Below are positions 2,620-20,900 of a stretch of 64,000 nucleotides of DNA, in pieces. Made by a program: the position numbers and the translations under genes. Source of the stretch: an uncultured bacterium (GTDB taxonomy: Bacteria; Patescibacteriota; Minisyncoccia; Phycocordibacterales; UBA918); assembly GCA_965652925.1 (NCBI GenBank), contig CBFGXL010000002.1, forward strand, positions 4,881 to 68,880, written 5' to 3'. Position 1 is the stretch's first letter, and every line of letters begins with the position of its first letter. A model generated the notes under the pieces. That model had not been told where the DNA came from and made no database searches. It was given only the letters and a program-made list of their open reading frames with translations.

Positions 2620-3312
2620 CTAGTTGGTGGTAGCGGTCAACGTAGCAGTTGCAGTGTACGTGCCTGTCTGTATAGCTGGGCTTGGATTACTTGGTATGTT
2701 GACGCGGAACTGGATAGTGGTCGTTGCCCCCGATGCGGCGGTCGAAGTTGTCCTGTTTATGATAGTTTCTGCTGCATCATCAGGGTCCATCCAACACGTT
2801 CCAGAACCATCCGTTGCACCTGTCGCACAGGTATTTGACCCGTTATCAAGAAACGACGCATCGAGGTCAGCCGATGAGGAGGCAGTTACGGTGTATCCAA
2901 ACTGTGCGAATGTATCGCTGGTGAAGGTATAGTCTGGCGTACCATCAGCTGCTGGTGCGTAGTTGCTTATATAACCACCACCGCCATCGCGGATCATTGC
3001 AGTTGTGCTTGAGAAGGCAATGGTCATGTTATAGCCCGCCGCATTGTTGGTACGGACCCGTACAGCATACGAACCATTTGAAGTACCTCCTGTGATACCT
3101 GCAAGTGAAGGACTCATCGTCACATCACTTGAAGTTGCCACAAATGAGATCTCCTCAGTGACTGTCTGAGTGACTTCAAACTCATCAGTGTCAACCGCCG
3201 CTCTTCCCACAACCGGTTCGAGCATGAGAAATGATCCTGCTGCAAGCAACAGCATGAGCGTTGTTGCAGTGAGCGAACTCAGCAGCGAAGTCCTAATATT
3301 TGTAATGGTCAT
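2620..3312 (-). CDS. Secreted Thr/Ser-rich protein, paralog of 779..1540, with a WxL-like C-terminal domain (W positions substituted).
   Basis: It has a signal peptide (LLSSLTATTLMLLLAAGSFLMLEP), a collinear alignment to 779..1540, and the C-terminal YTATATLTATTN. Confidence 0.55.
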   Translation of the reverse strand: MTITNIRTSLLSSLTATTLMLLLAAGSFLMLEPVVGRAAVDTDEFEVTQTVTEEISFVATSSDVTMSPSLAGITGGTSNGSYAVRVRTNNAAGYNMTIAFSSTTAMIRDGGGGYISNYAPAADGTPDYTFTSDTFAQFGYTVTASSSADLDASFLDNGSNTCATGATDGSGTCWMDPDDAAETIINRTTSTAASGATTTIQFRVNIPSNPSPAIQTGTYTATATLTATTN

Positions 3313-3426
3313 ACGTTGTAAATTATGTGTGTTTGTTAATTACTTCTACTATTATCTCTTAATTTTCCTAGACTTTTTGATCGAACGAAGGGCTTCTGTG
3401 GATTACTTTTGCTTTGTCAAATAAGG

Positions 3427-6400
3427 CTAAATCTCTCCTCCTCCACCCCCGCCGCCGCCTCCTGCCTGGGTGTAGGGCCGCACTTGGATGGCATCAACCC
3501 GGACAGTGTTCTGATCGGGTTGTCCGATAACCCGCACTACGAAGTTTGCATCACCCAGTTCAGCAGGCGTCCATCCTCTTCCCCATGTGTCGGACGGTCC
3601 GCCGAGCGTGTAGACCGCGTCAGATCCCGTTAAGACTGAGGTTGCTTTGGTTGCAGTAACAGAACTGTCTCCATTCCATGAAAGCGCAACCTGGATAGTA
3701 CCCGCGCCAGTAGAACCAGATGCCTCGAGTTTTACTTCTATACCCTGTACGGTATTGCCGCCCGGCACATTGAATCCAAAGAGGCTATAGGATTGGCGCA
3801 GGTTTGTAGATGCTGCTGTTGCATAGACTCCGTCGGAAGAAAGAGCATTGCTTCCTCCTGTCCACTCGCTATAGAGCTCTCCAGTTGCGCTTGGAGCCTC
3901 AAAGCCTGGTTCGTTGCCAATCTCTTCCCCATTGTCTTCCTCTCCTACCCCGCCGCCGCCTTGGCTTCCGCCGCCGCCGACGTCTCCATCGCCTTCGGGC
4001 GCCTCACCTCCCACTTCGGCCGCATGCAAAGCTCCGCTTCCATTGTTTCCTCCGCGGATATGCTGCACGCTTGAGACAGACCCGAGTGGAACGATGGCCC
4101 CAGCGGTAGTAGCTCCGGTGCCAGACAAACCGGTAGTTGGCAAACTGATAGTTACATATTCATTAGTGAGTACTCCCGACACGTCGCTTGTAAGGATGTA
4201 GTCTTTGGTTGTGGTTGCACTCCATGATGTTGAGAATGTGACCGTTCCTGATTGTTCTGTAACCGAGATCTCTCCTGCCCCACCAATCTGGTTGTCCCCT
4301 GCATCTACAGACCCGTCGCTGTTGTTGTCGCGATACAGCCTCAAGTCTGAAAGGTTGCTGCTGTCTATGCGGCGGATGCCGGAGAGCGCGAACGCCGCCG
4401 ATGAGATAGTCGCATTCTCTCCTTCAGGTGCAAGCCTGAAAGTATAGAGCGGCACATCGCTCTGGTTCTGATAGCTGAATTCATTTTCCACCTGTCCCGC
4501 TGTATGTTCAGAAAGCGTTGCTGCGCCGTGAATGGCAATTGTTTTATCGTCGGTTGCGGTTATCTGCGCGACAGAACTACCTGGCGCAGTCATGACGCGG
4601 TTGGTGCCGCTATTGGCAACTGCTACGAGTGTTCCTGTTTCATAAAGATCACTTGCGTATGTGATCGAAGACCACTGATTTGCTTCAGCGGCTGTACGCA
4701 CAGTCCAGTTATTACCATCGGGTGAGGTCATAACATAGTCACTACCGCTTCCCACAGCAACAAAGAGATCGGATGCGTATACTACTGAGGCCCATGAGTC
4801 ATTATCACCAGCCGCCGAACGTGCGGTCCAGTTAATACCATCGGGGGAGGTCATGACGCGATCGCTACCGCTTCCCACAGCGACAAAGAGACCGTTGCCG
4901 TAAGTGACGCTCGTCCACCAGTCATTATCACCAGCAGCAGAACGTGGGGTCCACGTTGTACCGTCAGGAGAAGTAATAACACGGGTGTTTCCACTACCGA
5001 CTGCGACAAAGAGACCGTTGCCGTAAGTGACCGACTGCCAGTTACCTGAGACGGCTTGTGCGCTCCAAGTGATGCCATCATCTGAGCTCATGACCGACGC
5101 ATTAGTTCCACAACCATTATCGTATCCGCCGCAGCCAACTGCCACGAATTTGCCTGAACCATAAGTAACCTCTGACCATATTTGATCAGTGGCAACTGAA
5201 CGTGCAGTCCACGTGATGCCATCCGGAGAGGTCATGATCGGATCATCGCTACCTCCTGTACTCACCGCCACAAAGATACCTTCTCCATACGTTATGGAGG
5301 ACCAGGAATCATTATCACCAGCAGCCGAACGTGCGGTCCAGTTAGAACCGTCAGAGCTTGTCATGACGCGGTTGGTTCCGTTTTCGGCAACAGCAACGAG
5401 TAGTTCACTTTCGTAAGCGACTGAACTCCACGAGTTTGCTTGTGCAGCGGAGTGGGCAGTCCAGGCAGAACCTCCATCTTCTCCAGCACTCTCTGTAATT
5501 AGGACAAGTGTACTCGTTGCGGTGTTGACCGTTCCAAACTGCACGAATGAAAGTCCTGAGATAGTGAGAGTATCACTCCCAACGAAATCGTTAGAGACCG
5601 GAACAACAAGCGTCGCCCCACCATTCTCATACGAGACCGGATTTGCAACCTTGCCTGAAGCAGTGCCTCCGAAGGTAGCAGTGGTATCTGTAGTGTCCCA
5701 CAACATATCGGTTGCAGAAGTATCGATCTTAATGCGGAGGTCATTTGCTGCAGTAATTGCTGGGGTCTCCCCGTCCGTGATGGTTATGGTCGCTATTGTT
5801 GTAGTAGCTTGACCGTACCCAAAGACCTGGTTTGAAGCTGAGGAGATGGTTCCCGGCACGGGCTCACCCCCAGTAATATCCCAGCAGGTGTTATTGCCGC
5901 TGTCGGTAGAATCAGTTGCGGTTATGTTCGGGTTCCCTGAGCAGGCGTTTGAATCCTGTACGTCAACATAGGTCACCGAGATCGGGGTGGTGACATCAAG
6001 TCCCCACTGTGTCCCTTCTTTTGATGAGCGGAGTATCGCCTCACCCCCTTCTTCCCCATCAATTCTCAGAGAAGCAAAGGTTGAAGTAGCATATGCTGGA
6101 AACTCAAACGTCACCCCAGGGGTCTGTGAAATAAATTTTGATGCTTCCACGGGAGTTGAGAACCGGATGGTCCCATCCACACGAGATCCGCTGTTCGAAA
6201 TCATGACCCTGTTGCTCCCTGCTTCGATGTCGCCGACCGCCACAAACGTGCCATTGCCATAGGTGACCGAGAACCAATCATTAGCCTCCGCAGCGGCCCG
6301 CGCAGTCCACGTGATGCCGTCAGGCGAGGTCATGACGCGATTGGTGCCTGTGTCCGCAACCGCAACAAACAGACCATCGCCATAAGTAATCGCGAACCAG

Positions 6401-9400
6401 CCGCTTGCCTCCGCAGCTGCGCGGGCGGTCCACGTGATGCCGTCGGGTGAGGTCATGACGCGATTGGTGCCTGTGTGTGCTACCGCCACAAACGTGCTAT
6501 TACCATAGGCGACCGAGAACCAATCATTAGCCTCCGCAGCTGCGCGGGCGGTCCACGTGATGCCGTCGGGTGAGGTCATGACGCGATTGGTGCCGTCAGA
6601 GGCGACCGCTACAAACAGACCTTCACCATACGTGACTGATACCCACGAGTTAGCTTCCGCGGCAGAACGGGCGGTCCACGTGATGCCGTCGGGTGAAGTC
6701 ATGACACGGTTGGTCCCGTCAAAGGCGACCGCTACAAACAGACCTTCACCATACGTGACTGATATCCACGAGTTAGCTTCCGCGGCAGAACGGGCGGTCC
6801 ACGTGATGCCGTCGGGTGAGGTCATGACGCGATTGGTGCCATCTTGAGAAACGGCAACAAAGGTTCCATTGCCATAGGTAACACCGAGCCACGTCTGATT
6901 ATTGCCTGGAGTACTTCGTGCGGTCCACGTGATGCCGTCGGGTGAGGTGATGATTTGGTCATCTCCATCATACGCAACTGCAACAAAGAGACCTTCCCCG
7001 TAGGTGACTGAATACCAGCCTTGTGTTGACACGTTACTGCTTGTCCATGTTGTTCCTCCTTCAGCATTTGATCCGGAGGAAACCTTGACCACAAGATTGT
7101 TAAATGCCGAATCAGAGCTTAAAGCGCCGGTGAGCGTCTGGTCATTACCTGTAAGAGTAGTTGTCCCTGTTCCCCAGTCAATTGTTCCGTCATTGGTGTA
7201 ATCCCCTGCAATCGACATCAGCGCCGGCGCGTCGACCGTGGTCGATGCAGTGATGGTGAGGTCGCTTGTTGAAGCGTTGTTCTCAAAGACAACACCTCCT
7301 GCAAGACTGCCGCTGTTGGAGGTCATGACACGGTTGGTGCCAGTATCGGATACAGCTACAAGCATTCCATTCCCATATACCACCTCCATCCATCGATTTG
7401 CTTCTGTAGCAGGCGTACCTGTCCACGTGATGCCGTCGGGTGAGGTCATGACTCGGTTCCCTCCTGCTGTAGTGTTGCAGCTAGCGTTGCCGATTCCGCA
7501 TGCAACCGCGACAAACGTATGGCCCGTATGAGTGACCGACTCCCAGTTGTCGGCAGGCGCCGTTCGCTCGGTCCAGGTGATGCCATCGGGTGAGGTCATC
7601 GCAAGCGCAGTTCCATTTCCTACTGCAACAAAGAGTCCTTCGGCGTAGACAATACCGTGCCAAGACGACTGCGTCACAAGGGGCGTCCTTGTGGTCCACG
7701 TGATGCCATCGGGTGAGGTCATGATCGTACCATCCCATGATAAAGCCACAAAGAGGCTGTTGCCGTAGGTGACTACACTCCACTGGCTTGCCTGGGCTGC
7801 AGTTCTATTGGTCCACGTGATGCCGTCAGGAGAGGTCATGACGCGGTTGGTGCCGTCAACTGAAACGGCTACGAACATATCATTTCCAAATGCTACGCTA
7901 TACCACGAGTTAGCCTGTGAGGCGGTTCGTGCGGTCCAGGTGATTCCATCAGGCGAGGTCATCACGCGGTTGGTACCGCTTTCTGCTACTGCAACAAAGA
8001 TGCCATTGCCATATGTGACGGAGTTCCACCCAGCGGACTCGTCCGCAGACGTCCGAGCGGTCCATGTGATGCCGTCGGGAGAGGTCATTACATTATTTGT
8101 GCCTCCATTAGATACCGCAACAAAGAGTCCCTCGCCGTAGACAAGACCCTGCCACGAATTATTGGTAGCTGCACTGCGCGCGGTCCACGTGATGCCGTCC
8201 AGAGCAAGAGTCTGCGGACTATCAAGCGTCAGATCGTTGAACGCCGAAGTGCCGGTCATGTTGCCAGAGAGCGTGGTGGTACCTGTGTATACCGTTGATT
8301 CATCGTAATCAAGAGAATACGGAAACACTGTGTCTGCAGCCGCACCATATATGTATACTTTCGAGCCATCCGCATTGAACTCGATGCTGCATACGGAACT
8401 CTCCTGTGCAGATACCGATTCACCTGCTCCGTCGTATGTTGCAGTAGTTATGTCCCATGGCGTTCCGAGCGTGTACGGGAAAATGGTGTTTGAACCTGTT
8501 CCCACAACATACATCTTGGTACCATCGTCCTTAAGATGCACATCCTGCACAGCACTTTCCTGTCCGCTTATCAGGAAGGACTTGCTGTCATAGGTCGCGC
8601 TGCTGATGACCCATGGAGTTCCGAGCGTATATGAGTATATGCGATTGTTGCTGTCCCCGGATATATACATGCGAGTTCCATCCTCTGTAATGTGCATTCC
8701 GAATGGACTGACATCCTGAGCAATAGAGAAGGACGAGCTGTCATAGCTGGCTGTGGTGACATCCCATGGAGTTCCGAGCGTATAGGAGAATACAGCGTCA
8801 TTCTCTGAACCGAGCATGTACATCTTGGTGCCATCGGTCTTGAATGACACCTTCTCAACCCACTGGTCTTGAGCCAGGATACTGAAGGATTTGTTGTCAT
8901 ACACAGCTGTTGTGACGTCCCACGGGGTTGAAAGAGTGTACGAATACACCGTATCCATGTTGTACCCCGCTACGAACATCCGAGTGCCATCGGGACTGAA
9001 AGCAAGGCTTGTGATGTTATTCTCTTCGCTTGCAGTGGACTTCCCTGCGCCATCGTATACAGCAGTGGTGACGTCCCAGCCGCCGGTTACGGTGGTTGAA
9101 GCAGTAGTGGTTCCATTGATATACACAATGCCTGAGCCGCTGTTGAACGTGCCGCTGTTAGTGTAATCCCCCGTTATGGTCAAGGCGCTTGGGGCAGCCA
9201 CTGTAGAGCCCGAAGCGATCGAAAGATCGCTTGTGCTTGCATTGTCGCTGAAGGTCTTGGTGCTGTTGCCGGAGAAATAGACATCATTGAAAGCGCTCGT
9301 GCTTGCCATGTTCCCCTGGAGTGTTTGGGCCGTTGAGCCGGTGAAGTACACCGCTCCGCCGTTGTGTGTGAAGGTACCGTCGTTGGTATAGTCATCGGCA

Positions 9401-12400
9401 ATCGACAGCAGAGCAGGAGCAACAACCGTGGTCGAAGCGCTTCCGATAGTGAGATCGGTTGTTGAAGCATTGTCAGCAAAAGTGACCATGTTCTCGTACG
9501 AACCATCGCTTGAGACCAGAACCTGGTTTGTTCCGTCGGTACTTACGCCTACAAACTTACCTTCTCCATAGGTCAGGGACCTGAAGAAGTTCGTGTTTGG
9601 CGCGGTCTGTTCGGTCCAGGTGATGCCATCTTCTGAGGTCATGATATAGGTGCTTCCGGTTAATATATCGCCCAAAGATGCAAAGATACCTCCTCCATAG
9701 GCAAGTCCGTACCAGTCACTATTGCCAGGTGTAGTCCTTGCAGTCCACGTGATGCCGTCAGGCGAGGTCATCGCAGTATCGGTCTCACTGACCGCGACGA
9801 ATATACCTTCCCCGTAGACCACCCTCTGCCAGCCGGATGCGCTTGATGCACTACGAGAGGTCCAGGTGATGCCGTCTTGTGAGGTCATGACGCGGTTGGT
9901 TCCCGTATCGGAAACTGCAACATAGGTTCCATTACCGTACGTTATACCCATCCAATCATTTGCCTCTGCAGCTGTTCTGCCGGTCCACGTGATGCCGTCA
10001 GGCGAGGTCATAACGCGGCTGGTGCCGCTATACGCCACCGCAACGAATTGACCATTGCCGTAGGTGATTTCTCTCCATGTAGAGCTTTCGTCACCGGAGG
10101 TTCGCGCAGTCCACGTGATGCCGTCGGGCGAGGTCATGACGCGGCTGGTACCGGTGTTCGCAACAGCCACGAAGAGGCCGCCGCCGTACGTAACCGCTTG
10201 CCACGAATTTCCTACAGCTGGGGTGCGGCTGGTCCAGGTGATACCGACGGGTGAAGACATGACGTCTCCATCCCAGGAGACTGCGACGAAGGTCCCATTG
10301 CCATACGCAACGCCGCTCCACTGCGAGGACGCTGACGCACTTTCCTCTTCCCAGACAGCTGCTGTGTTAGCTAATTCTCCCGTTGAAGTGGCAGTAAGGT
10401 TCCCAAGCGCAGAGTTTCCGGTGAGATTACCCGAAAGGCTGCTGTTCCCTTCGATTACCATTGTGCCATCGTTGTGGTCGAACTCGCCGTTGTTCGTATA
10501 GTTGCCTTCAACCGTGATCGTCCCCGAAGGCGCAGTGACCGTCGCTGTTGCACCAATGGTCAAATCCCCCATCGCAACATCATTCGTGAAAGAAACCGTG
10601 CTGTCATCGGCGGTAATAGTGAAGTCGGCAAAAGTTGTCTCTCCGCTTCCGGTAAAATCCTTATCCGTGTCTGGAGTGCCGCCTCCTTCTGTGCCGGTGG
10701 TGAACTGGAAAACGTCCTGCTCATCAAAGCCGTACATGTACATTTTCACTCCATCGTTCCCAAAGGCAACCTGCATCGGGGAGAATTCAGTGAATGATTC
10801 TGCGCCGAAATCGAATGTCTCACCGCTGACAAGGACCGCTGTAGAGATATCCCACGCAGTGCTGAGCGCATATTCATACATGGCGGACGTAGAGTGGCCT
10901 ACCATGTACATATACATTCCGTCACTGGTGAAATGAATGCCTGTGGGGGTAGTATCCTGCGATGCAACAGAGAATGTCTGGGAAAAGACACCAGTAGAGA
11001 CATCCCATGCGACACTGAGGTTATATTGATGGACCGCATCACTGTTGCCTCCCACCACATACATCTTGGTTCCGTCAGAACTGAATTCCACTCCGTATGG
11101 GTTCGTTTCTTTTCCGCTTACGTCCAAGTAGTCAGTATATGAGGCTGAAGAGACATCCCACGGTGTGGACACAGCATATTCACCCACAGCCGCAGCGCCA
11201 TCTGCAGTTATGTAGAACTTCGTACCGGTATCATTGAAATAGAGGTCTCCAGCAAAGTCTTCCTGCGCCGCCACGCTAAAGGTATTGACCTGCGAAGCTG
11301 TTGAGAGGTCCCAGGCGCTACTGAGCGTGAACTCGCGAACGATGTCTGTTGACCAGCCGAAGGTGTACATCTTCAGTCCGTCTGAACGGAAATGGAGTCC
11401 TGCAGGTCCTGTGTCGGCAATACTTTCCAAGACACTGTCATAAGTTGCTCCGGCCACATCATAACCGACGGTATTGTTCTCAAGATCAATGGTCGTTGCT
11501 CCTGAGGCCTGCGTGAAAGTGCCGTTGTTAGTAAAGTCAGAATTGAGTGTAAGCGCGTCTGGAGCAGCCACTGTTGAGCTCGCAGTGATCGTGAATGCTC
11601 CATTCACTACTGCATCAGCAGTGAAGGTCTGTGTGGTATCTGCATAGGACCCGCTCTCTGAGGTCATGACGCGGTTAGTGCCTCCGTACGAAACTGCTAC
11701 AAAAGTATCTTTTCCGAAGGTAACAGAATTCCAGAATGTAGACTCAGCTGCGCTTCGTGCAGTCCAGGTGATGCCGTCGGGCGAGGTCATCACGCGATTG
11801 GTACCGCTCTCCGCAACGGCAACAAAGAGGCCATTGCCGTAGGTAACTGAAGTCCACGCATTTGCTTCAGCTGCTGTGCGCGCGGTCCAGGTGATGCCAT
11901 CAGGGGAGGTCATCACTTGATCCGTACCGCTTGTTGCAACAACCACAAATGTTCCCTCTCCGTGGGTAATTGAATACCACTGATGATCCCCCGCATCTGT
12001 TCGCGCGGTCCAGGTGATGCCGTCAGGACTTGTCATGACACGGTTCGTTCCATTATTTGAAACGGCTACGAAAAGGTCTTCAGCATATATAACTGAAGTC
12101 CAAGCGTTCGCTTCTGCAGCGCTTCGCGCGGTCCAGGTGATGCCGTCAGGACTTGTCATGACACGGTCAGTTCCACTTCCCACAGCAACAAAGAGGCCAT
12201 TGCCGTAAGTGACGCTGTACCACGTATCATCATTGCCTGCAGCCGAACGAGGAGTCCAATTGACCCCGTCAGACGAGGTCATAACACGATTCGTTCCCGT
12301 TTGAGCAACGGCTACGAAAAGACCATTGCCGTAAGTGACGCTGTACCAGTTATTTGCTTCAGCCTCAGCTCGAGCTGTCCACGTGATGCCGTCAGACGAG

Positions 12401-14928
12401 GTCATAACGCGGTTGGTTCCTGTTTCAGCAACAGCCACAAAGAGACCGTTGCCGTAGGTAACAGACAGCCAATTGTTTGCCGCAGATGCAGATCGCCCAG
12501 TCCATGTCACGCCATTATTTTCAAAATTGCTCACCGAGACTAAGAAACTTCCATCTGCTACCCCAGCTCTATTGACCCCATCAGAGTTGATCGCAACCAC
12601 CTTGCCGTCTCCATAGGTTATGTCTTCCCACTGCGCACTTTCTGCTTCATCGACAGGAGTCCAATTGATGCCATCAGTGGAGATCATGACCTGCTCAGCA
12701 AGATCGCCGTACCCGATCGCCACGAAATACTCGCCTGTAAAAGTAACTCCTATCCAGGACCCGTCATAGGTCGCGTCCCGCGCAGTCCAGGTTATGGCGT
12801 CAGGAGATGTCATGACATTCATGGTCCCGGCATTAAGGGATGAGACAGCTACATAGGTGCCGTTGCCATACGCGATACCATTCCACCAATTGTTTTCAGC
12901 TGCAGTGCGGTTCGTCCACGTGATACCGTCTGGAGAGGTTGCTACGCGGTTATCTCCCACAGCAACAAACTGGCTGTGTTCTTCGTTGAACATAACATTG
13001 TAAATGCCGTTGCCTGATGCGGTACCGGAAGACCACGTAAGACCATCGTCTGAATACATTGCGGTACCGTCGTACGAGAGCGCAACAAACCTCCCTTCGC
13101 CATACGCAACAGCAGACCACATATCTGCAGAAGCAGCAGTTCGGTTCGTCCACGTAATGCCGTCCTCTGAGGTCATGACGCGGTTAGTGCCATTAGGTGC
13201 CACAGCGACGAATCGGCCTTCGCCATACGCGACCTTTCTCCATTCGTTCGCCTGTGAAGCAGAGCGTCCTGTCCAGGTGATGCCGTCAGGAGAGGTCATG
13301 ACGCGAGAACCTCCCGCCGTTGCGTTACATGCGCCATCAACAGAGATGCCGCAGGCAACCGCCACAAAGAGACCTTCACCGTAGGTGACTCCTTGCCATG
13401 GGTGAGCAAGGCTCGGCGTGGAAGCGGGGATCCAGTGCGTTCCGGTGACCAGCACTCTTTGTGTCGAAGAACCAGTTACTATAGGACCATAGGAAATTTC
13501 GTTTCCGCTTATAGTCGCATCCACCGGAAACGAGGTTGTACCCGCAGTCAGGTCAAGCGTACCGTTATTTTCTAGGTCTCCTCCAAGTACTGTTGAAGTG
13601 GCACCAGTGAAAGTATCCCCGCTCCATATATAGAGCTTCTGCCCATCGTCGATTAAGAGCTCTCCATCTCCTTCCCTGACGACATAGGAAATATCCTGAT
13701 CATGCCTTCCGTCATAGGTTCCCATTTCATCAAGCGACGTAGCTCCATCATCCTCATTCCGGATGATGACGTGGTCTTGATAAAGATCCATACCACTGAG
13801 TGCCCCAGAGCCGGCAGTCAAAACAAGAGCACCCCTCGTGCTTTGGTCACCGTCCACCCAAACAACCGCAGTTTCGCCCTCAGCTGGAGCAGCAGAAATG
13901 CTCCAGTCACCGTTACTGTCGGTGGTTGCGGTGGATACTGTGCCGTCAACGTAAGCCTTTATAGTCTTGCCTGTGGTGATCGCTGTAGAGCCCTCATCAG
14001 CATATAGAGTCCCTGACAACGAGGGAGCAACTTCAAACTCTCCAGTGGAGATTGCTACCCAATCATAATTTCGCGATGCGCAGTTCGCATCCGCATCGTC
14101 CTCAAATTGAAGTGACACTCCAGTTGTTGTCTTTGTTCCAACCTCAGGAGAACACAGAGCAGCATTCACCCCTTGAGCCATGGCCACTACGATATAGCTC
14201 GTATCTGGGAATGCTGTTGAGAATGTGACCGAACCGACACCGCTGCCATTTGTAGTTGCACTGCCTGCTTTTATATTTGCCCCGTCAACCGTGTACTCCC
14301 CATGAGAAAATGCACAGTAATTGGTATCTGTCACCGCCTCTGTAGCTCCACCATCATCCTCGATGCGTATCACCGCCTGAGATGTGGTCTTGGAACCTGA
14401 ATTGAAGTTTACAACTGGAGAATCGGTGTCGGTGATAGCATTCGCAATAATTGAATAATTTGTATCCGGGAAAGCACTTGAGAATGTAACAGTGTTGTCG
14501 CCCGCGGTACCTCCGCTCACAGCACACTTCACATACTTGCTACTGCCGAGATTCCAATCTCCATATGTAAGTGCCATCCAGTTATTGCTATTGGCATTCT
14601 CTGCCGAACCCGTGTCATCTTCAGCAACAATGGTGAAGCCTCCGGCTGCTTTGTTGCTGTACGTCATGGAGTACATAACATCAGTTCCGGTCGACCCTCC
14701 ATTGAGAAGGATTGAGTAACTACTGTTGGCCATCGCTGAGCTAAAAGTGACGCCGACAGTACCTCCACTGGTGATATTTATAGCTCCTGTTTTGAATTCA
14801 AAAGATTGTGCATGTGCATGCCCAACAACGCCGAAGAAAAAGAGAGCGGCCAAAACACACCCCATCATTAACATATATATATATGAGGTGATTGATCTTG
14901 TATGAAGTTGTAAAGTGATTTTTTTCAT
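3427..14928 (-). CDS. Giant (3833 aa) secreted surface protein with three N-terminal H-type-lectin-like domains, more than 40 BNR/Asp-box-like 41-aa repeats in five blocks, two blocks of PD40/TolB-like ~55-aa repeats, beta-helix-like Thr/Asn-rich linkers, and a Gly-rich C-terminus.
   Basis: It is a single 11.5-kb ORF with an N-terminal signal (MLMMGCVLAALFFFGVVGHAHAQ). The repeated unit is NRVMTSPDGITWTARSAAEANSW.SVTYGNGLFVAVA, matching S-x-D-G-x-T-W. A second repeat class is FSSDGTKMYVVG..D.V..Y.L.TPWDVSTA. The N-terminus carries three ~90-aa VTFSSAFPDT.YSII...IRIEDD units. Confidence 0.85.
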   Translation of the reverse strand: MKKITLQLHTRSITSYIYMLMMGCVLAALFFFGVVGHAHAQSFEFKTGAINITSGGTVGVTFSSAMANSSYSILLNGGSTGTDVMYSMTYSNKAAGGFTIVAEDDTGSAENANSNNWMALTYGDWNLGSSKYVKCAVSGGTAGDNTVTFSSAFPDTNYSIIANAITDTDSPVVNFNSGSKTTSQAVIRIEDDGGATEAVTDTNYCAFSHGEYTVDGANIKAGSATTNGSGVGSVTFSTAFPDTSYIVVAMAQGVNAALCSPEVGTKTTTGVSLQFEDDADANCASRNYDWVAISTGEFEVAPSLSGTLYADEGSTAITTGKTIKAYVDGTVSTATTDSNGDWSISAAPAEGETAVVWVDGDQSTRGALVLTAGSGALSGMDLYQDHVIIRNEDDGATSLDEMGTYDGRHDQDISYVVREGDGELLIDDGQKLYIWSGDTFTGATSTVLGGDLENNGTLDLTAGTTSFPVDATISGNEISYGPIVTGSSTQRVLVTGTHWIPASTPSLAHPWQGVTYGEGLFVAVACGISVDGACNATAGGSRVMTSPDGITWTGRSASQANEWRKVAYGEGRFVAVAPNGTNRVMTSEDGITWTNRTAASADMWSAVAYGEGRFVALSYDGTAMYSDDGLTWSSGTASGNGIYNVMFNEEHSQFVAVGDNRVATSPDGITWTNRTAAENNWWNGIAYGNGTYVAVSSLNAGTMNVMTSPDAITWTARDATYDGSWIGVTFTGEYFVAIGYGDLAEQVMISTDGINWTPVDEAESAQWEDITYGDGKVVAINSDGVNRAGVADGSFLVSVSNFENNGVTWTGRSASAANNWLSVTYGNGLFVAVAETGTNRVMTSSDGITWTARAEAEANNWYSVTYGNGLFVAVAQTGTNRVMTSSDGVNWTPRSAAGNDDTWYSVTYGNGLFVAVGSGTDRVMTSPDGITWTARSAAEANAWTSVIYAEDLFVAVSNNGTNRVMTSPDGITWTARTDAGDHQWYSITHGEGTFVVVATSGTDQVMTSPDGITWTARTAAEANAWTSVTYGNGLFVAVAESGTNRVMTSPDGITWTARSAAESTFWNSVTFGKDTFVAVSYGGTNRVMTSESGSYADTTQTFTADAVVNGAFTITASSTVAAPDALTLNSDFTNNGTFTQASGATTIDLENNTVGYDVAGATYDSVLESIADTGPAGLHFRSDGLKMYTFGWSTDIVREFTLSSAWDLSTASQVNTFSVAAQEDFAGDLYFNDTGTKFYITADGAAAVGEYAVSTPWDVSSASYTDYLDVSGKETNPYGVEFSSDGTKMYVVGGNSDAVHQYNLSVAWDVSTGVFSQTFSVASQDTTPTGIHFTSDGMYMYMVGHSTSAMYEYALSTAWDISTAVLVSGETFDFGAESFTEFSPMQVAFGNDGVKMYMYGFDEQDVFQFTTGTEGGGTPDTDKDFTGSGETTFADFTITADDSTVSFTNDVAMGDLTIGATATVTAPSGTITVEGNYTNNGEFDHNDGTMVIEGNSSLSGNLTGNSALGNLTATSTGELANTAAVWEEESASASSQWSGVAYGNGTFVAVSWDGDVMSSPVGITWTSRTPAVGNSWQAVTYGGGLFVAVANTGTSRVMTSPDGITWTARTSGDESSTWREITYGNGQFVAVAYSGTSRVMTSPDGITWTGRTAAEANDWMGITYGNGTYVAVSDTGTNRVMTSQDGITWTSRSASSASGWQRVVYGEGIFVAVSETDTAMTSPDGITWTARTTPGNSDWYGLAYGGGIFASLGDILTGSTYIMTSEDGITWTEQTAPNTNFFRSLTYGEGKFVGVSTDGTNQVLVSSDGSYENMVTFADNASTTDLTIGSASTTVVAPALLSIADDYTNDGTFTHNGGAVYFTGSTAQTLQGNMASTSAFNDVYFSGNSTKTFSDNASTSDLSIASGSTVAAPSALTITGDYTNSGTFNSGSGIVYINGTTTASTTVTGGWDVTTAVYDGAGKSTASEENNITSLAFSPDGTRMFVAGYNMDTVYSYTLSTPWDVTTAVYDNKSFSILAQDQWVEKVSFKTDGTKMYMLGSENDAVFSYTLGTPWDVTTASYDSSSFSIAQDVSPFGMHITEDGTRMYISGDSNNRIYSYTLGTPWVISSATYDSKSFLISGQESAVQDVHLKDDGTKMYVVGTGSNTIFPYTLGTPWDITTATYDGAGESVSAQESSVCSIEFNADGSKVYIYGAAADTVFPYSLDYDESTVYTGTTTLSGNMTGTSAFNDLTLDSPQTLALDGITWTARSAATNNSWQGLVYGEGLFVAVSNGGTNNVMTSPDGITWTARTSADESAGWNSVTYGNGIFVAVAESGTNRVMTSPDGITWTARTASQANSWYSVAFGNDMFVAVSVDGTNRVMTSPDGITWTNRTAAQASQWSVVTYGNSLFVALSWDGTIMTSPDGITWTTRTPLVTQSSWHGIVYAEGLFVAVGNGTALAMTSPDGITWTERTAPADNWESVTHTGHTFVAVACGIGNASCNTTAGGNRVMTSPDGITWTGTPATEANRWMEVVYGNGMLVAVSDTGTNRVMTSNSGSLAGGVVFENNASTSDLTITASTTVDAPALMSIAGDYTNDGTIDWGTGTTTLTGNDQTLTGALSSDSAFNNLVVKVSSGSNAEGGTTWTSSNVSTQGWYSVTYGEGLFVAVAYDGDDQIITSPDGITWTARSTPGNNQTWLGVTYGNGTFVAVSQDGTNRVMTSPDGITWTARSAAEANSWISVTYGEGLFVAVAFDGTNRVMTSPDGITWTARSAAEANSWVSVTYGEGLFVAVASDGTNRVMTSPDGITWTARAAAEANDWFSVAYGNSTFVAVAHTGTNRVMTSPDGITWTARAAAEASGWFAITYGDGLFVAVADTGTNRVMTSPDGITWTARAAAEANDWFSVTYGNGTFVAVGDIEAGSNRVMISNSGSRVDGTIRFSTPVEASKFISQTPGVTFEFPAYATSTFASLRIDGEEGGEAILRSSKEGTQWGLDVTTPISVTYVDVQDSNACSGNPNITATDSTDSGNNTCWDITGGEPVPGTISSASNQVFGYGQATTTIATITITDGETPAITAANDLRIKIDTSATDMLWDTTDTTATFGGTASGKVANPVSYENGGATLVVPVSNDFVGSDTLTISGLSFVQFGTVNTATSTLVLITESAGEDGGSAWTAHSAAQANSWSSVAYESELLVAVAENGTNRVMTSSDGSNWTARSAAGDNDSWSSITYGEGIFVAVSTGGSDDPIMTSPDGITWTARSVATDQIWSEVTYGSGKFVAVGCGGYDNGCGTNASVMSSDDGITWSAQAVSGNWQSVTYGNGLFVAVGSGNTRVITSPDGTTWTPRSAAGDNDWWTSVTYGNGLFVAVGSGSDRVMTSPDGINWTARSAAGDNDSWASVVYASDLFVAVGSGSDYVMTSPDGNNWTVRTAAEANQWSSITYASDLYETGTLVAVANSGTNRVMTAPGSSVAQITATDDKTIAIHGAATLSEHTAGQVENEFSYQNQSDVPLYTFRLAPEGENATISSAAFALSGIRRIDSSNLSDLRLYRDNNSDGSVDAGDNQIGGAGEISVTEQSGTVTFSTSWSATTTKDYILTSDVSGVLTNEYVTISLPTTGLSGTGATTAGAIVPLGSVSSVQHIRGGNNGSGALHAAEVGGEAPEGDGDVGGGGSQGGGGVGEEDNGEEIGNEPGFEAPSATGELYSEWTGGSNALSSDGVYATAASTNLRQSYSLFGFNVPGGNTVQGIEVKLEASGSTGAGTIQVALSWNGDSSVTATKATSVLTGSDAVYTLGGPSDTWGRGWTPAELGDANFVVRVIGQPDQNTVRVDAIQVRPYTQAGGGGGGGGGEI
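6299..6913. repeat. Five or more tandem copies of a 123-bp (41-codon) unit with very high nucleotide identity inside the 3833-aa gene, encoding BNR/Asp-box repeats.
   Basis: The core cgggcggtccacgtgatgccgtcgggtgaggtcatgacgcgattggtgcc recurs starting at 6299, 6422, 6545, 6668 and 6791, an exact 123-bp period. Confidence 0.85.
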
Positions 14929-14931
14929 ACG

Positions 14932-17900
14932 CTATGGTGTTACTTCTATGCTTTGTTCTTCTGCTGTCTCGACCTGCGGTTCTTCTGCAACTTCTTCTTG
15001 TGTCCCCTCTTCTACAACTGGTTCTTCTGCTGTCTCCTCTGTTTGTGGTTCTTCTGTAGGTTCATTCTGTGGCTGTAATTCTGTTTCCTGTGGAGGTTGT
15101 TCTGTCTGCGGCTCTTCAACTGGCGGTTCTTCCTGCATGGCGTCCTCCGGAGGAGGCGGGGTTGCTTCGGTATCGCCCGTGCCACCCTCAGTCTCCCCGC
15201 CTCCTTGCGTTTCAGAAGGCGCAGGTTCCTGCGGTTCTTCCTGCGGCGGAGGTGTCTGTTCCCCGCTTCCTGAGCCATTACTTGGTCGATTGACTTCCAG
15301 CAAGAGTGCACGTAGGTCGTCTGCTGTGAGGCATACACCGTCCACACAAAGCTCGTTTTCAACATATACATTTTCTGCACGCAAGCCCGCAACATTGAGC
15401 ACACCGTCAACAAAGCCCTGCGCGAGCGTCTTGACTCGATCCCAGAGCGTTTCTTCTCCATCACTGCCAAGGACGACATCCGTTGAAGTTGACGTCAGTT
15501 CAGCAAGGAGCGACTCTGCATTAGCCGGATGCCAGCCCAAGTTTACAAACATGAGCGCCTGGCCGACTTTCACTGCCTGCCCGTCTGCGATCTCCTCTTC
15601 CCGCGCATCTTCGCGCGCCAGATCACGCAACGCATCTTGCATTTCCTCGTGTTCGTCAGCAATTGCTGTCTCAACAGACTCGAACCGCTGTGTATCGCGC
15701 GGTGTACACTCCTCCTCTTCCTCGCCGAGTGCGACGCCGCCACCGAAGTAACATCCATCGTGGATGCGCTCATCATCCTCTTGCGAAAGCGGATCGGTCT
15801 TCGGTTCTGCGATATCGTCACCGAACTGATCAATGAATCCTTCCGAATATGCATACTCGCCGTCATAGTCTTCAAGTGCCACACCTACAACCGTGCCGCT
15901 TTCTGTTGCCTTCATACCAACTCCCGGAATCGACGAGAGCATGATCTTGTCCCCTGCCTTGATCGGTCCATTCTCTGTTGAAAGCTTCACCGGCACGCGT
16001 CCTGAAAGTGCAACTGGGTAACCTTCTTGTCCAGAAGTTAAGGAGGTGTCGTCAAATCCGAGTGTGAGTCCCGGCTTGGTTGAGACCACGCCGATGATGT
16101 TCGCACTGTTCTCTTCGTCGGCGCGTTCAATACTGAGGATTCCAGCGGTAGCAATGATCTCTCCTGGCTCAAGGTCCTCTGAGGAGAAATACATTTCGGC
16201 CAAGTCAGAGTTGCCAACTGCCGATGAAACAGACGTGATCTTTCCTGTTGTTGACGCATTACAGCTACCGTCGTTGTCGACACACAAACCCCCGTAACCG
16301 ATCTGCAATCCCGCCATGTTGTTGGTAGTACCGTCTCCGATGGTCGTTGTACCGTGTGCAGTGACCGTGAACTTCGATGTCCCTGCGTTTTGGAAGTCGA
16401 CAAATTTTGAGGTAGTTGATGAGAACGATCCTCCCGAGTTGCCGAAGTTCATTACCAAGCCAGTGCCAGCAAATGCAGACGTATCTTGGAAGAGGCTTAC
16501 GAGGTCTTCGGTAGTGATCGAAGCCGAGTATGCCCGAATGGCATTTCCTTGCGTTGTGCCACGTGTCTGAGCGAAGACTCCAGCAGGCTGGAAGGTACCT
16601 CCTGCGTCACCCTCAGTAGTACCGCGCACACCGAAGGTTCGTCCGAATGCAGAGATACCGGTATTCTCTCCTTGTGTATTGGTGCCACGATGTGCCTGTA
16701 CTTCCAAGCCACGCACAGTGTTCCCAAGCGCAGTATCGTCCTCAATACGAAGCATCTTTCCTACGAGTGTTGAGGTCGCTGTTGGCGCGTTCACTATATA
16801 TGAATTGTCACCGTAGTAGACCGCGCTTGCCGATGAGTTTGTGAAGTTGAAATACTGATGAATGCCCGCAGTCCTCGAACCACTAACGCTCGTTGTCCCC
16901 ATCGCGAGCAGTGATGAAGGCGTGGTGGTACCGATGCCAACAAACCCAGTATCAAGAATACGCATCACGTCAGTTCCACTGCCCGCCTGGATCGTAACGT
17001 CAGCACCGGTGTTATGTGCACCAATTGTGAAGAGATCCGAAGTGTGATTCCAGTTTATCTGTGCACCAACACCGTCAGAAGGAGTTCCGAAGTAGATCAT
17101 CGAGTTAGACGCATCGGGTGTCATGAGGGTAAGGCCAGCATTGCCTGAACCTTCAAGGACAAGTTCATCAGCAGCACTATTCACTGCAGCCCCGCTTGCT
17201 CCACTATACACATGGAGTTTTCCATTCGGAGAGGCAGTTCCTATACCAATATTTCCCGCCCCATTGATCACAAGTCGATCATTAGTACCTAAGGCTGATG
17301 ATGATGAGATCTTGAACTTCGCTCCGTCAGAGTCATCGATACCGATACTCCACTTTTCGTTTGCACCGGAGACCGTTGAGAATTCAATTGCAGCGTCTGC
17401 GGCATTATTGAAGATAGAAAGTTTTTGGTTTGGTGTTGAGGTACCGATACCCATTCGACCATTGGTCAAAGTCGCAACACCATTCCAACCAGCAACATTG
17501 AAAGTGAGGTAGTTTGAGCCGCTCGTAATTGCATTTGCATTACTTGTTGCGTCTAACTCAATATAATCGCTCACACTAGATGGATTGGTTGAACGTATAG
17601 CGCCGTACACATCAAGTTTTGACTGAGGACTTGTAGTACCAATACCCACATTACTCGCAGGAAGAAGTGCGAGATTGCCAGCAGAGTTTCCAAACACAGT
17701 TGCACCATTGTTCTCTACCTCGAGATATGCAGAGCGGTCGTTACCAGAGTCAAAAATATTCATGCTGAAACCATTGAGAATTTCTGCATGTGATTCAATA
17801 CTTACAACATCTCCACTACCAAAGAGTGTTGGATAACCAGATGCTTCGTTCAAGCTCACAAAAAGATAATCACCGCTTGCTCCTGTCATGGTGAAGTCTC

Positions 17901-20900
17901 CATTTGAAGCAATGGATACACCCTCATCGCCTCCATCTCCTGAGAGGAAGTTGGAACCGAGCGCGATGTTGGCGGCGTTACCTGAGAGCGTGAGTGTTGA
18001 CGTAGCGCTCAATGCTGAGAATGTTGCAGTACCTGAGAATGCAGGCGAACTTGAGAACACTGCGCGTTCAGTACCTGTTTCGTCGGTGAGTATTGCCGCA
18101 AGCTCTGCTGAAGTATCGATATCAGATGAGGAAAGCCCACCCCCACCAAGACCAAGCGTCGAGGTGGCGACCCAGTTGAACCCTGAGCCGGTTGATTGCA
18201 AGATCATGCCGTTGCTTCCTGCGCTGTTACTGTTGTCGTATAAGGCTCCGGTGATACGAGCACTCCCAGCGACAGTGAGCATCTGCGACGGTGTTGAGGT
18301 ACCGATGCCAAAGCGGCTTGAGGACATGTTCACTGATGAAAGTGTATTTGCAGACGTGGTTGCCGGTATGTTTGCAAAGAGGAAGTTCCCGATGTTGAGG
18401 AAGTTTGAGGTGTTAGTAGACGTACCCAAGGTATTGTTACCGATCATGATGTTGTTGAATCCGGTAGTTATATTGCCGCCAGTTGTAGTGGTGTTGTCTT
18501 TCGATCCAAGGTAGATGTTGCCGTAGCCAGTGGTGTTGGCATAACCAGCCCGATAGCCTAAAGAGACATTATTAGATCCGGTGGTGTTATTTTGAAGACC
18601 ACTCATGCCTACTGCCGCATTGTTCCTACCCGTAGTGTTGAGGAGTAGAGCATTCCTACCAAGGCCGGTGTTTCCTATACCAGTGAGATTGCCTGAGAGG
18701 GCGTAATTGCCGAGGGCGGTGTTGTTCGAGCCGGTAGTATTGACATCAAGTGTGTCAACACCTATTGCCACATTGCTATTACCCGTGGTGTTTGAGAGAA
18801 GCGAACCACTACCGAAAGCAGTGTTAGCAATTCCTGTGGTATTGGCGAAAAGTGAAGAATAGCCAACGGCAGTGTTTTGATTTCCTGTAGTGTTAGAGTA
18901 GAGCGTATTGATACCGACAGCAGTGTTCGAACCTCCCCCAGTAATAGAAGATGGCAGTGCGTTAAAGCCGCTTGCATAGTTGGTTCCGCTCTCACCCAAA
19001 TTCATAAGCCGTGTGCCATTACGAGCAAAGAGATTGATTGATGGGGTGTAGGTAATTTCCCGAACAGAAACGTTATCGATAGTATATAAGGTGCCCTCAC
19101 TATAGTATGAGCTATCTACGAATAGCGTGTCAGTTCCCGTGTAATCAGCAGTGAAAATAACTTGATTCTGTGCAAAGTAGCTATTATTTCCTTGAAGGCT
19201 ATTATTGGTGAAATAAACAGAGGCAGAGGAGCTTGCGGCGCCGCTAAAATCATATTGGATCAGATAGGTGTGCCCTGCCACGGTAGAAATGTTTTGTGAG
19301 ACAGTCGCATCGTTACATGCAGAAACACACGATACGCGGACATTGTTGCTGTTGTATGAAGCATCAGAACCAAGCGTCCAACCAGTGGCACTACCGGTGA
19401 AGGAACCGTTCGTAATGAGCTCGCTGCCGATGATAGTGCTTGAGGCTTGAGCGGTGAGTGAGGCGTACGAGGTAGAAGTTCCTATAGTAACCGTCTTGCT
19501 GTGAAGATCATCGGTAATACGAGCACTTCCTGCAACAGTGAGGAGCTGAGATGGGGTTGTGGTGCCGATACCGACGTTGCCAGTGCCTGTAACGGTGAAG
19601 TCAACGCCTGCATCACCTCCTGTCTCGACACTTAAATTACCAGATGCATTCATATACAGAAGTGCGTAGGTTGAAGGATTATAAAGTCCGATACCAGCAT
19701 TCGAAGTGCCAGATGTCTCTGTGATCTGTAAAAATGGGTAGGTAGATGCGACCAACTCGATATCATCAGCAGGCGAGGTCGTACCAATACCTATACGTCC
19801 CGCGCTCGTAACGAAGATACCCTCATCCCCTCCATCTCCCGAGAGCCAATTAGAACCAAGTGCAATATTTGCGGAAGATCCTGAGAGCGTGAGACGTCCT
19901 GACTGTGTGGTAGTTGCAAAAGAACCTGTACCGGTAGCAGTAAGGCTCGAGAAGGTTGCCGTACCGGAGAACGCAGGAGCGTTCGAGAAGACGAGGCGGC
20001 CGGAGCCGGTTTCATCGCCAACAATGGCAAGCAGTTCGCTTGAAGTATCAAGAAGACCGTTGTGAGTGAGGGTTGCGTCTGCAACGATCGCGTCGAGTTC
20101 TGCGTAGGTGTCGATATCTGCTGAGGTGAGACCGCCCGTGATGCCGAGTGTTGAAGTCGCAACCCAGTTGAACCCTGAGCCGGTAGACTGCAAGACCATA
20201 CCGTTTGAACCTGCGCTGTTGCTGTTGTCGTAGAGAGCTCCGGTGATGCGGGCTCCTCCGGCGACCGTCAAAAGTTGAGACGGGGTTGAGGTTCCAATAC
20301 CCACATACCCCGCCCCATTGATCACTAGGCGATCATTGGTACCAAGTGCTGAAGAAGAAGAGATCTTGAACTTAGACCCGTCGCTGTCATCAATGCCGAT
20401 CGTCCACTTCTCATTTGCTCCTGAGATAGTTGAGAACTCGATCGCAGCGTCTGCGCCGTTGTTGAAGATAGAAAGCTTCTGGTTAGGAGTAGTGGTGCCG
20501 ATACCGAGGCGGCCAGTTGAGAGGATGAGTCCTGCCCTATTGTTTGATGAGAGAAGTGACGAAGAAGCAGTGCCCTCGATGGTGAGTGCGCCATTAATGA
20601 GAGCATTCTGACCGACGTTGAGTCCACCGCGCACATTCACCCCTTGGTCGAAGGTTGCAGTTTGCTTGGTGCGGAAGATGTCGAAGAGTCCAGAGCCCGC
20701 GAACATGTTGGAGACGGTGAGGCCGGAGATATCGATTATGGCGAGGTTGTTGGAGGCAGACCCTGTCACGTACACATAGTTGCCGGAGACACTGACAGAT
20801 CGGGGACCATCCATCACATTTGCGTCATTTGGATCCCAATTACCGACGGTGACCGGTGCGGCCGGATCAGAAATATTGACGATAGCGAGGTTCTGTGAGA

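Follow-up and report, generated by a model that had tools for sequence, protein, structure and literature searches.

Size-variable tandem-repeat proteins such as alpha C/Rib, SasG/Aap and Esp are found on the surface of Gram-positive cocci. Their genes hold in-frame, near-identical DNA repeats, and recombination among the units is able to remove or add copies. Every repeat is a domain in its own right within a linear rod, with copy number free to vary. Repeats that are alike at the DNA level are likewise a feature of highly repetitive beta-propellers, which, in work by Chaudhuri, Soding and Lupas from 2008, are said to have been amplified from single blades. Membership of this class is defined by at least two consecutive blades with a median blade identity above 60% (Pereira & Lupas, 2022; PMC9218822), in an account whose main text does not use the terms gene conversion, unequal or recombination. 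Here we describe a 64,000-nucleotide (nt) stretch of DNA from an uncultured bacterium of the Patescibacteriota (assembly GCA_965652925.1, contig CBFGXL010000002.1, positions 4,881 to 68,880; hereafter the window), in which a giant gene carries five consecutive, similar 123-nt units. An initial annotation had placed these units in a 'BNR region' and had proposed that changes in their number set the length of a stalk. The explanation that we consider probable is that the array instead comprises blades 3 to 7 of a closed propeller, homogenised by recombination between blades while the number of blades stays constant at seven.

The gene encodes a protein of 3833 amino acids (aa) with an N-terminal signal/transmembrane segment. 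A blade hidden Markov model (HMM), made from units of the protein itself, locates repeats of 41 aa with the pattern 'GTNRVMTSPDGITWTAR..AEAN.W.SVTYG.G.FVAVA' in six blocks (aa 495-795, 804-1094, 1523-1810, 2242-2541, 2622-2915 and 3150-3451). The layout is common to all six: six full units are preceded by a partial unit at the N-terminal end and followed by an additional C-terminal strand, 'GTNRVMTS.SGS', so that the blade count is exactly seven in every block. The gene and its predicted propellers are as follows (TRF, Tandem Repeats Finder).

3427-14928, minus strand: giant open reading frame (ORF), 3833 aa; six seven-bladed propellers, two blocks of 51-aa repeats, beta-helix-like linkers and a C-terminal module
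12544-13446, minus strand: propeller 1, seven blades, the most divergent of the six (blade HMM)
11647-12519, minus strand: propeller 2, seven blades; TRF 123-nt array, 68-76% matches
9499-10362, minus strand: propeller 3, seven blades (blade HMM)
7306-8205, minus strand: propeller 4; core of its blade b4 at 7810-7854, polymorphic between strains at 7825, 7828 and 7831
6184-7065, minus strand: propeller 5 (aa 2622-2915); N-terminal partial unit, six full units of 41 or 42 aa and closing strand, making seven blades
4576-5481, minus strand: propeller 6, seven blades; TRF 123-nt array at 4703-5031, 78% matches

The five units lie in propeller 5, where TRF reports an array at 6234-6840 with a period of 123 nt, 4.9 copies and 83% matches. 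As had been stated from the outset, the period is an exact multiple of three: it equals 41 codons in frame with the ORF, and a change in copy number would keep that frame. A 45-nt core, GGTCCACGTGATGCCGTCGGGTGAGGTCATGACGCGATTGGTGCC, recurs at 6304 (3 mismatches), 6427 (none), 6550 (none), 6673 (4) and 6796 (none), while the core of the next unit, at 6922, has 10 mismatches; cores that resemble it, with 3-7 mismatches of 45 nt, are also present in the other five propellers of the gene. The parts of propeller 5 are listed below.

6229-6843, minus strand: five homogenised units, b7 (6229-6351), b6 (6352-6474), b5 (6475-6597), b4 (6598-6720) and b3 (6721-6843)
6844-7065, minus strand: divergent blades b2 (6844-6969) and partial b1 (6970-7065), with just 51-59% aa identity to b3-b7
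6184-6228, minus strand: C-terminal closing strand 'AGSNRVMISNSGS' (blade HMM)
6530-6594 and 6407-6471, minus strand: 65-nt exact repeat pair, in the cores of b5 and b6
within 6600-6819, minus strand: exact repeats of 54 nt and 42 nt between b3 and b4, the 42-nt stretch holding the crossover of a b3/4 hybrid seen in two other assemblies (L004 and L006)

A further exact repeat, of 50 nt, is common to b3, b5 and b6. Over whole units, nucleotide identity among b3-b7 is 72-94%, against means of 50-66% for other blade pairs, so that the units do stand above the neighbouring repeats. The five consecutive units with a near-identical stretch of more than 40 nt in the initial annotation are thus real, with the qualification that 'near-identical' describes the 45-nt core; over the whole unit it fits only b3/b4 (94%), the other pairs among b3-b7 lying at 72-87%. 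At the protein level, pairs among b3-b7 share 0.76-0.95 of their residues, and the six full blades of propeller 5 give 15 pairs with a median of 0.78.

What these units are predicted to form is indicated by an AlphaFold2 model of propeller 5, for which the alignment consisted of the six paralogous blocks of the protein. The model (predicted local distance difference test score 88, predicted template-modelling score 0.87) has 28 strands in seven groups of four. Foldseek, run with it against the PDB, placed the seven-bladed propeller of Ycf48 first (TM 0.68-0.71), followed by Kelch and designed propellers, and the 50 best matches are propellers without exception; a sequence profile of the six blocks had Ycf48 as its sole match in the PDB (E = 2.8e-5). 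On this model the 41-aa units are predicted to be single four-stranded blades of a closed, seven-bladed, Ycf48-like propeller, in which the closing strand at 6184-6228 and the N-terminal partial unit would together complete the last blade as a velcro closure, given the Asp-box strand order (PMC2716378). The likeness to Ycf48/HCF136 (Pfam PSII_BNR; PDB 5ojr and 2xbg) is one of fold and profile, sequence identity being only 13-15%. Ycf48 is a single-domain lipoprotein of photosystem II assembly with divergent blades, whereas propeller 5 is a repeated module inside a giant surface protein.

The term 'BNR' is apt for this domain at the level of the superfamily and no further. None of the Pfam BNR models matches the 3833-aa protein at E <= 0.01, and the blade motif, S-P-D-G-I-T-W (SxDGxTW) in all blades, is one residue short of the canonical Asp-box S-x-D-x-G-x-T-W (PMC9218822). 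Homology to a bona fide member of the Asp-box group is nonetheless detectable, in that Ycf48, placed in this group by the phrase 'PSII-like' in PMC9218822, is both the only profile match and the best structural one. Two other Pfam models exceed their gathering thresholds when the whole protein is scored, namely EPTP (PF03736; 62.6 against 21 bits) and DUF6242 (PF19755; 70.9 against 29 bits), with no single stretch significant on its own. The likeness is a blade-level one only, and the EPTP label, defined on the vertebrate LGI/epitempin proteins, is silent on function.

The similarity of b3-b7 goes beyond what the encoded protein requires, as had been proposed. The Nei-Gojobori proportion of synonymous differences (pS) is 0.45 within b3-b7 (range 0.16-0.65), compared with 0.73 +/- 0.09 for 620 other blade pairs (Mann-Whitney p = 2e-7), and the three lowest values among all 630 pairs are those of b3/b4 (0.16), b5/b7 (0.31) and b5/b6 (0.34). 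Where residues are identical, blade pairs within b3-b7 agree in the codon in 43-86% of cases; for other blade pairs the figure is about 38%. Within b3-b7 the same-codon fraction is 0.80 in the core and 0.58 in the tail, about 0.31 being expected from the codon usage of the gene. An excess confined to the core extends across the gene: when blades from different propellers are compared, the fraction in the core reaches 0.50, where 0.30 is expected, and that in the tail, at 0.32, is close to its expected 0.31. Tail residues of equal conservation (V43, A44 and G33) show no such excess, which argues against translational accuracy, that is, optimal codons at conserved sites, as its source.

The identity is moreover mosaic. 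Blades b5 and b6 have 19 of 19 codons in common in the N-terminal core half and 4 of 9 in the tail (p = 0.0013), the tail of b5 resembling that of b7, while b3 and b4 show the opposite pattern, with 15 of 20 codons shared in the core and 16 of 16 in the tail (p = 0.05). Mosaic identity of this kind is what hybrid units and conversion tracts would give and one clean amplification would not.

A conversion tract is also found segregating in the population. Strain variants were reached through the downstream neighbour gene, which encodes a 230-aa product: the exact same product occurs in contigs from about 48 blocks of a public assembly collection, and 22 contigs were read. These are independent short-read metagenome assemblies of the same population, as SPAdes-style NODE contigs with 3-8x coverage. 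One of them, L005, has 99.92% identity with the window across 13.3 kb, with 11 single-nucleotide polymorphisms (SNPs). Three of these, at 7825, 7828 and 7831, are all synonymous and fall within 7 nt, and they make 32 nt of the core of blade b4 of propeller 4 identical to the neighbouring b5 core at 7693. The cluster is a short gene-conversion tract that is polymorphic in the population. Together with the synonymous deficit and the mosaic units it supports the proposal of recent unequal crossing-over or gene conversion; recent duplication of units combined with conversion accounts best for the surplus nucleotide identity. The tract and the gene-wide homogenisation of the core are, in our judgement, the most informative additions of this analysis.

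Two smaller differences between assemblies may be recorded here. Four synonymous SNPs in 13 nt (9403-9415) distinguish the window from L004 and L005 in the linker after propeller 3; no donor for this cluster is present anywhere in the 64-kb window, the nearest match having 4-5 mismatches. At the intergenic position 3383 the base in the window differs from that in 12 other readable assemblies and agrees with L007 (L027 is unreadable there owing to an indel), and is either a private SNP or a consensus error.

By these measures propeller 5 is a member of an already described class, the highly repetitive beta-propellers: its median blade identity of 0.78 is above the limit for the class, and its blades are similar at the nucleotide and synonymous level, with exact repeats of 42-65 nt. 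It also has in common with described members its more divergent first and last blades or closing strand, its setting in an extracellular bacterial protein and an Asp-box lineage that is listed among them (PMC9218822). It differs in being 'locally plus globally' repetitive, with five of the seven blades homogenised and these themselves mosaic, and in being one of six paralogous propellers in a single CPR (candidate phyla radiation) protein, with the blade core homogenised across all six.

Homologues point to the same blade number. The protein homologue search matched only the widespread single-propeller module, each match covering about 45% of the query, and long self or partial products of the gene were not among the matches. 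In the best 120 homologues, out of more than 7,700, six full units plus one partial unit is by far the commonest architecture (90 arrays), and blade identity has a median of 0.72 and a maximum of 0.94; most homologues carry a precomputed PF03736 match. Two contigs, L029 (3129-3995) and L030 (3009-3872), hold homologous propellers adjoining Peptidase_S74 tail-fibre-like genes, with 126-nt repeats in 6.9 copies and 88-92% nucleotide matches. These are globally repetitive, seven-bladed versions; therefore, even nearly identical blades come in sevens, which fits a closure constraint as well as the account in the literature in which single blades are amplified into propellers (PMC9218822).

The number of units in propeller 5 is, however, not the same in every assembly. 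L005, L007 and L013 are base-for-base the same as the window across 5900-7465, so that four assemblies, counting the window, have seven blades. L006 is 123 nt, or one unit, shorter and carries a b3/4 hybrid whose crossover lies inside the 42-nt identical stretch. L004 is 246 nt, or two units, shorter, having the same b3/4 hybrid and in addition a b5/6 hybrid formed in the 65-nt repeat; a global alignment with the window contains 11 SNPs and one net gap of 246 nt. Three further contigs from three samples (L008, L012 and L027) have identical starts, b5-b5-b6-b7, and each stops at the repeat, the 65-nt pair being the substrate of this b5-b5 loop as well.

One reading of these variants is that blade number is truly polymorphic within the population, through unequal crossing-over at the 42-65-nt exact repeats, with short alleles coexisting alongside the seven-blade allele; its corollary is a domain that tolerates or even exploits fewer blades, for example for antigenic or specificity variation. 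Both short versions are otherwise about 99.9% identical to the window, the b3/4 hybrid was recovered from two independent samples with its crossover in a 42-nt identity that is below the usual final k of 55, and identical blades can build propellers of differing blade number according to PMC6805158. Against this, the contigs are NODE contigs of low coverage, and each of the variants corresponds to a path through a collapsed repeat node. The ends of seven contigs fall within the array and form a 123-nt ladder (6331, 6461, 6584 in two cases and 6707 in three), and further contigs end in the blade cores of other propellers, L007 at 7465 in propeller 4 and L013 at about 9966 in propeller 3, the latter with some 40 nt of unmatched, junk sequence; the giant gene as a whole is hard to assemble from short reads. 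The same b5-b5 contig from three samples, stopping at the repeat, is typical of a loop artefact, and we judge the doubled b5 to be one. The observed variants are predicted both by unequal crossing-over and by mis-traversal of a de Bruijn graph, in which loops are skipped or doubled or a bypass is taken, so that inspection of strains, which the initial annotation had suggested, yields a pattern that an assembler artefact would produce equally well. The window, three other assemblies, the paralogous propellers and the commonest homologue architecture all agree on seven. Real blade-number polymorphism is a tentative alternative, and it is somewhat doubtful that even one of the two shorter versions is genuine.

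The stalk that was originally envisaged, in which the units would be independently folding repeats as in the Gram-positive proteins and their number would set the reach of the molecule, has in its favour the in-frame 123-nt period, the high nucleotide identity, the location in a surface protein and the difference in unit number among assemblies. Single four-stranded blades cannot fold alone, though, and the fold prediction, in which a partial unit at the N-terminal end and a closing strand at the C-terminal one belong to a closed toroid, in effect refutes a stalk. The count of exactly seven units in each of six arrays also speaks against it, and we regard it as very improbable. The blades of propeller 5 differ from the autonomous domains of the Gram-positive rods in being parts of a closed toroid with split terminal units and a fixed number. 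In a closed seven-blade toroid, a change in copy number would therefore alter or break the domain and not its length. To have replaced a plausible but wrong stalk by a closed propeller is a correction made here.

It is slightly less probable still that the assembly of the array in the window is itself at fault and has too many or too few units. Short-read assemblies clearly struggle at this array, and a warning to that effect has been given for repetitive propellers (PMC9218822); the three independent assemblies that match the window base for base, and the seven blades of the other five propellers and of the commonest homologue architecture, speak against such an error. Least probable of all is that there was no recent recombination and that strong purifying selection on an idealised blade, together with codon bias, brought about the identity as a side effect, since the near-invariance of the core aa sequence across all 36 full blades and the similar cores of the other propellers, which are what this view draws on, would leave the codon excess in both core and tail of b3-b7, the expected values at equally conserved tail residues in other propellers and the low pS of b3/b4 unexplained.

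Diversity-generating retroelements are common in CPR genomes. As a candidate explanation, a target of such an element was rejected, the differences between units not being adenine-specific; a Pfam scan of 22 ORFs, a subset of those in the window, revealed no reverse transcriptase.

Several observations weigh against homogenisation at a constant seven blades. Few codons underlie the mosaic tests, the differences specific to b4 and b7 are singletons, and strict four-gamete incompatibility is absent. The core codon excess could arise from some nucleotide-level selection instead of conversion. The missing units of L006 and L004, if real, mean that blade number is not strictly seven in this population. 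An orthologue from another species was found neither in species-representative genomes nor in metagenomes of the Joint Genome Institute (JGI), and for this reason the events cannot be polarised in age or direction. A search of the former with the unique linker downstream of propeller 5 gave just one spurious 31-residue match, and exact-product look-ups of the 3833-aa protein and of a 3815-aa version starting at M19 returned no match. The binding function discussed below is, in addition, drawn from context only.

In the JGI metagenomes the same linker matched a single protein, L002 (2370-9095 of Ga0066639_10000438), which shares only the C-terminal modules and has no propellers. This is a 2241-aa surface protein with a C-terminal module of about 600 aa in common, including the glycine-rich end, and with 49% identity over the linker. 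As it occurs there without propellers, the C-terminal module is a separable unit.

With these reservations, the array is best accounted for as blades 3-7 of a closed, velcro-type, seven-bladed propeller of Asp-box/Ycf48-like lineage, the fifth of six paralogous propellers in a giant, secreted surface protein from a bacterium of the Parcubacteria group (CPR). The units would recombine homologously and in register, which would keep the blades alike at the DNA level, and this would happen in two layers: the duplication or replacement of whole units, as suggested for b3/b4 and b5/b7, and short-tract gene conversion centred on the invariant 'RVMTSPDGITWT' core. As the core holds the longest runs of nucleotide identity, conversion there may be self-reinforcing. 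Because the toroid must close, selection would hold the number of blades at seven, and the long-term outcome would be concerted evolution at constant copy number and not variation in length.

Other parts of the protein and its surroundings may be summarised briefly. Two blocks of about five 51-aa repeats each ('FS.DGTKMYV.G..D.V..Y.LSTPWDVSTA') lie between propellers at 10684-11469 and 8299-9084 on the minus strand; neither has a Pfam match, and they may represent another type of propeller. Towards the N-terminus (aa 42-298, about 14035-14805, minus strand) are three repeats of about 85 aa, with a weak likeness to phage tail-fibre gp53-like C-terminal and WIAG-tail domains, both under the curated cut-offs. 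Directly upstream is a second giant gene (14932-23802, minus strand; 2956 aa) with LVIVD repeats (7 stretches, E = 1.9e-54) and otherwise unannotated. The neighbours of the giant gene in the window include GatB, Obg, SecA, MurB and a surface-polysaccharide cluster, SecA being 74% identical to named Candidatus Kaiserbacteria and Nomurabacteria proteins. The taxonomic placement is based on this SecA likeness, and there are relatives whose SecA identity is 83-86%. The cluster (33008-61819) encodes a Wzy_C-TPR protein, an AT3-SGNH acyltransferase, a bifunctional ATP-sulfurylase/APS kinase, a Polysacc_synt-family protein, GT4 glycosyltransferases and an epimerase, and is followed at the end of the window by a Lamin-tail/PKD protein and a HerA/TrwB-like ATPase.

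Propeller 5 is most likely an extracellular ligand-binding module, either an adhesin or a receptor-binding domain, with a pseudo-symmetric binding face. This suggestion stems from the signal sequence and from the occurrence of homologues in proteins sorted by the type IX secretion system (T9SS), in InlB-repeat proteins and in phage tail-fibre-like proteins. The locus offers a clear case of propeller blades that evolve in concert, and the conversion tract in it is polymorphic between co-occurring strains. That short-read metagenome assemblies disagree at it matters for users of gene models of CPR giant surface proteins taken from metagenome-assembled genomes. It is a less likely prospect, and one for which the odds are clearly unfavourable, that the assemblies short by one or two units represent real alleles and that the surface propeller of a CPR episymbiont changes its blade number by unequal crossing-over on ecological time scales. 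If so, it would be a living example of plasticity in blade number, of which designed or oligomeric propellers have provided the only demonstrations to date; gene-wide micro-conversion would keep the substrate for recombination intact, and the locus would allow a direct test of the evolution of blade number in nature.

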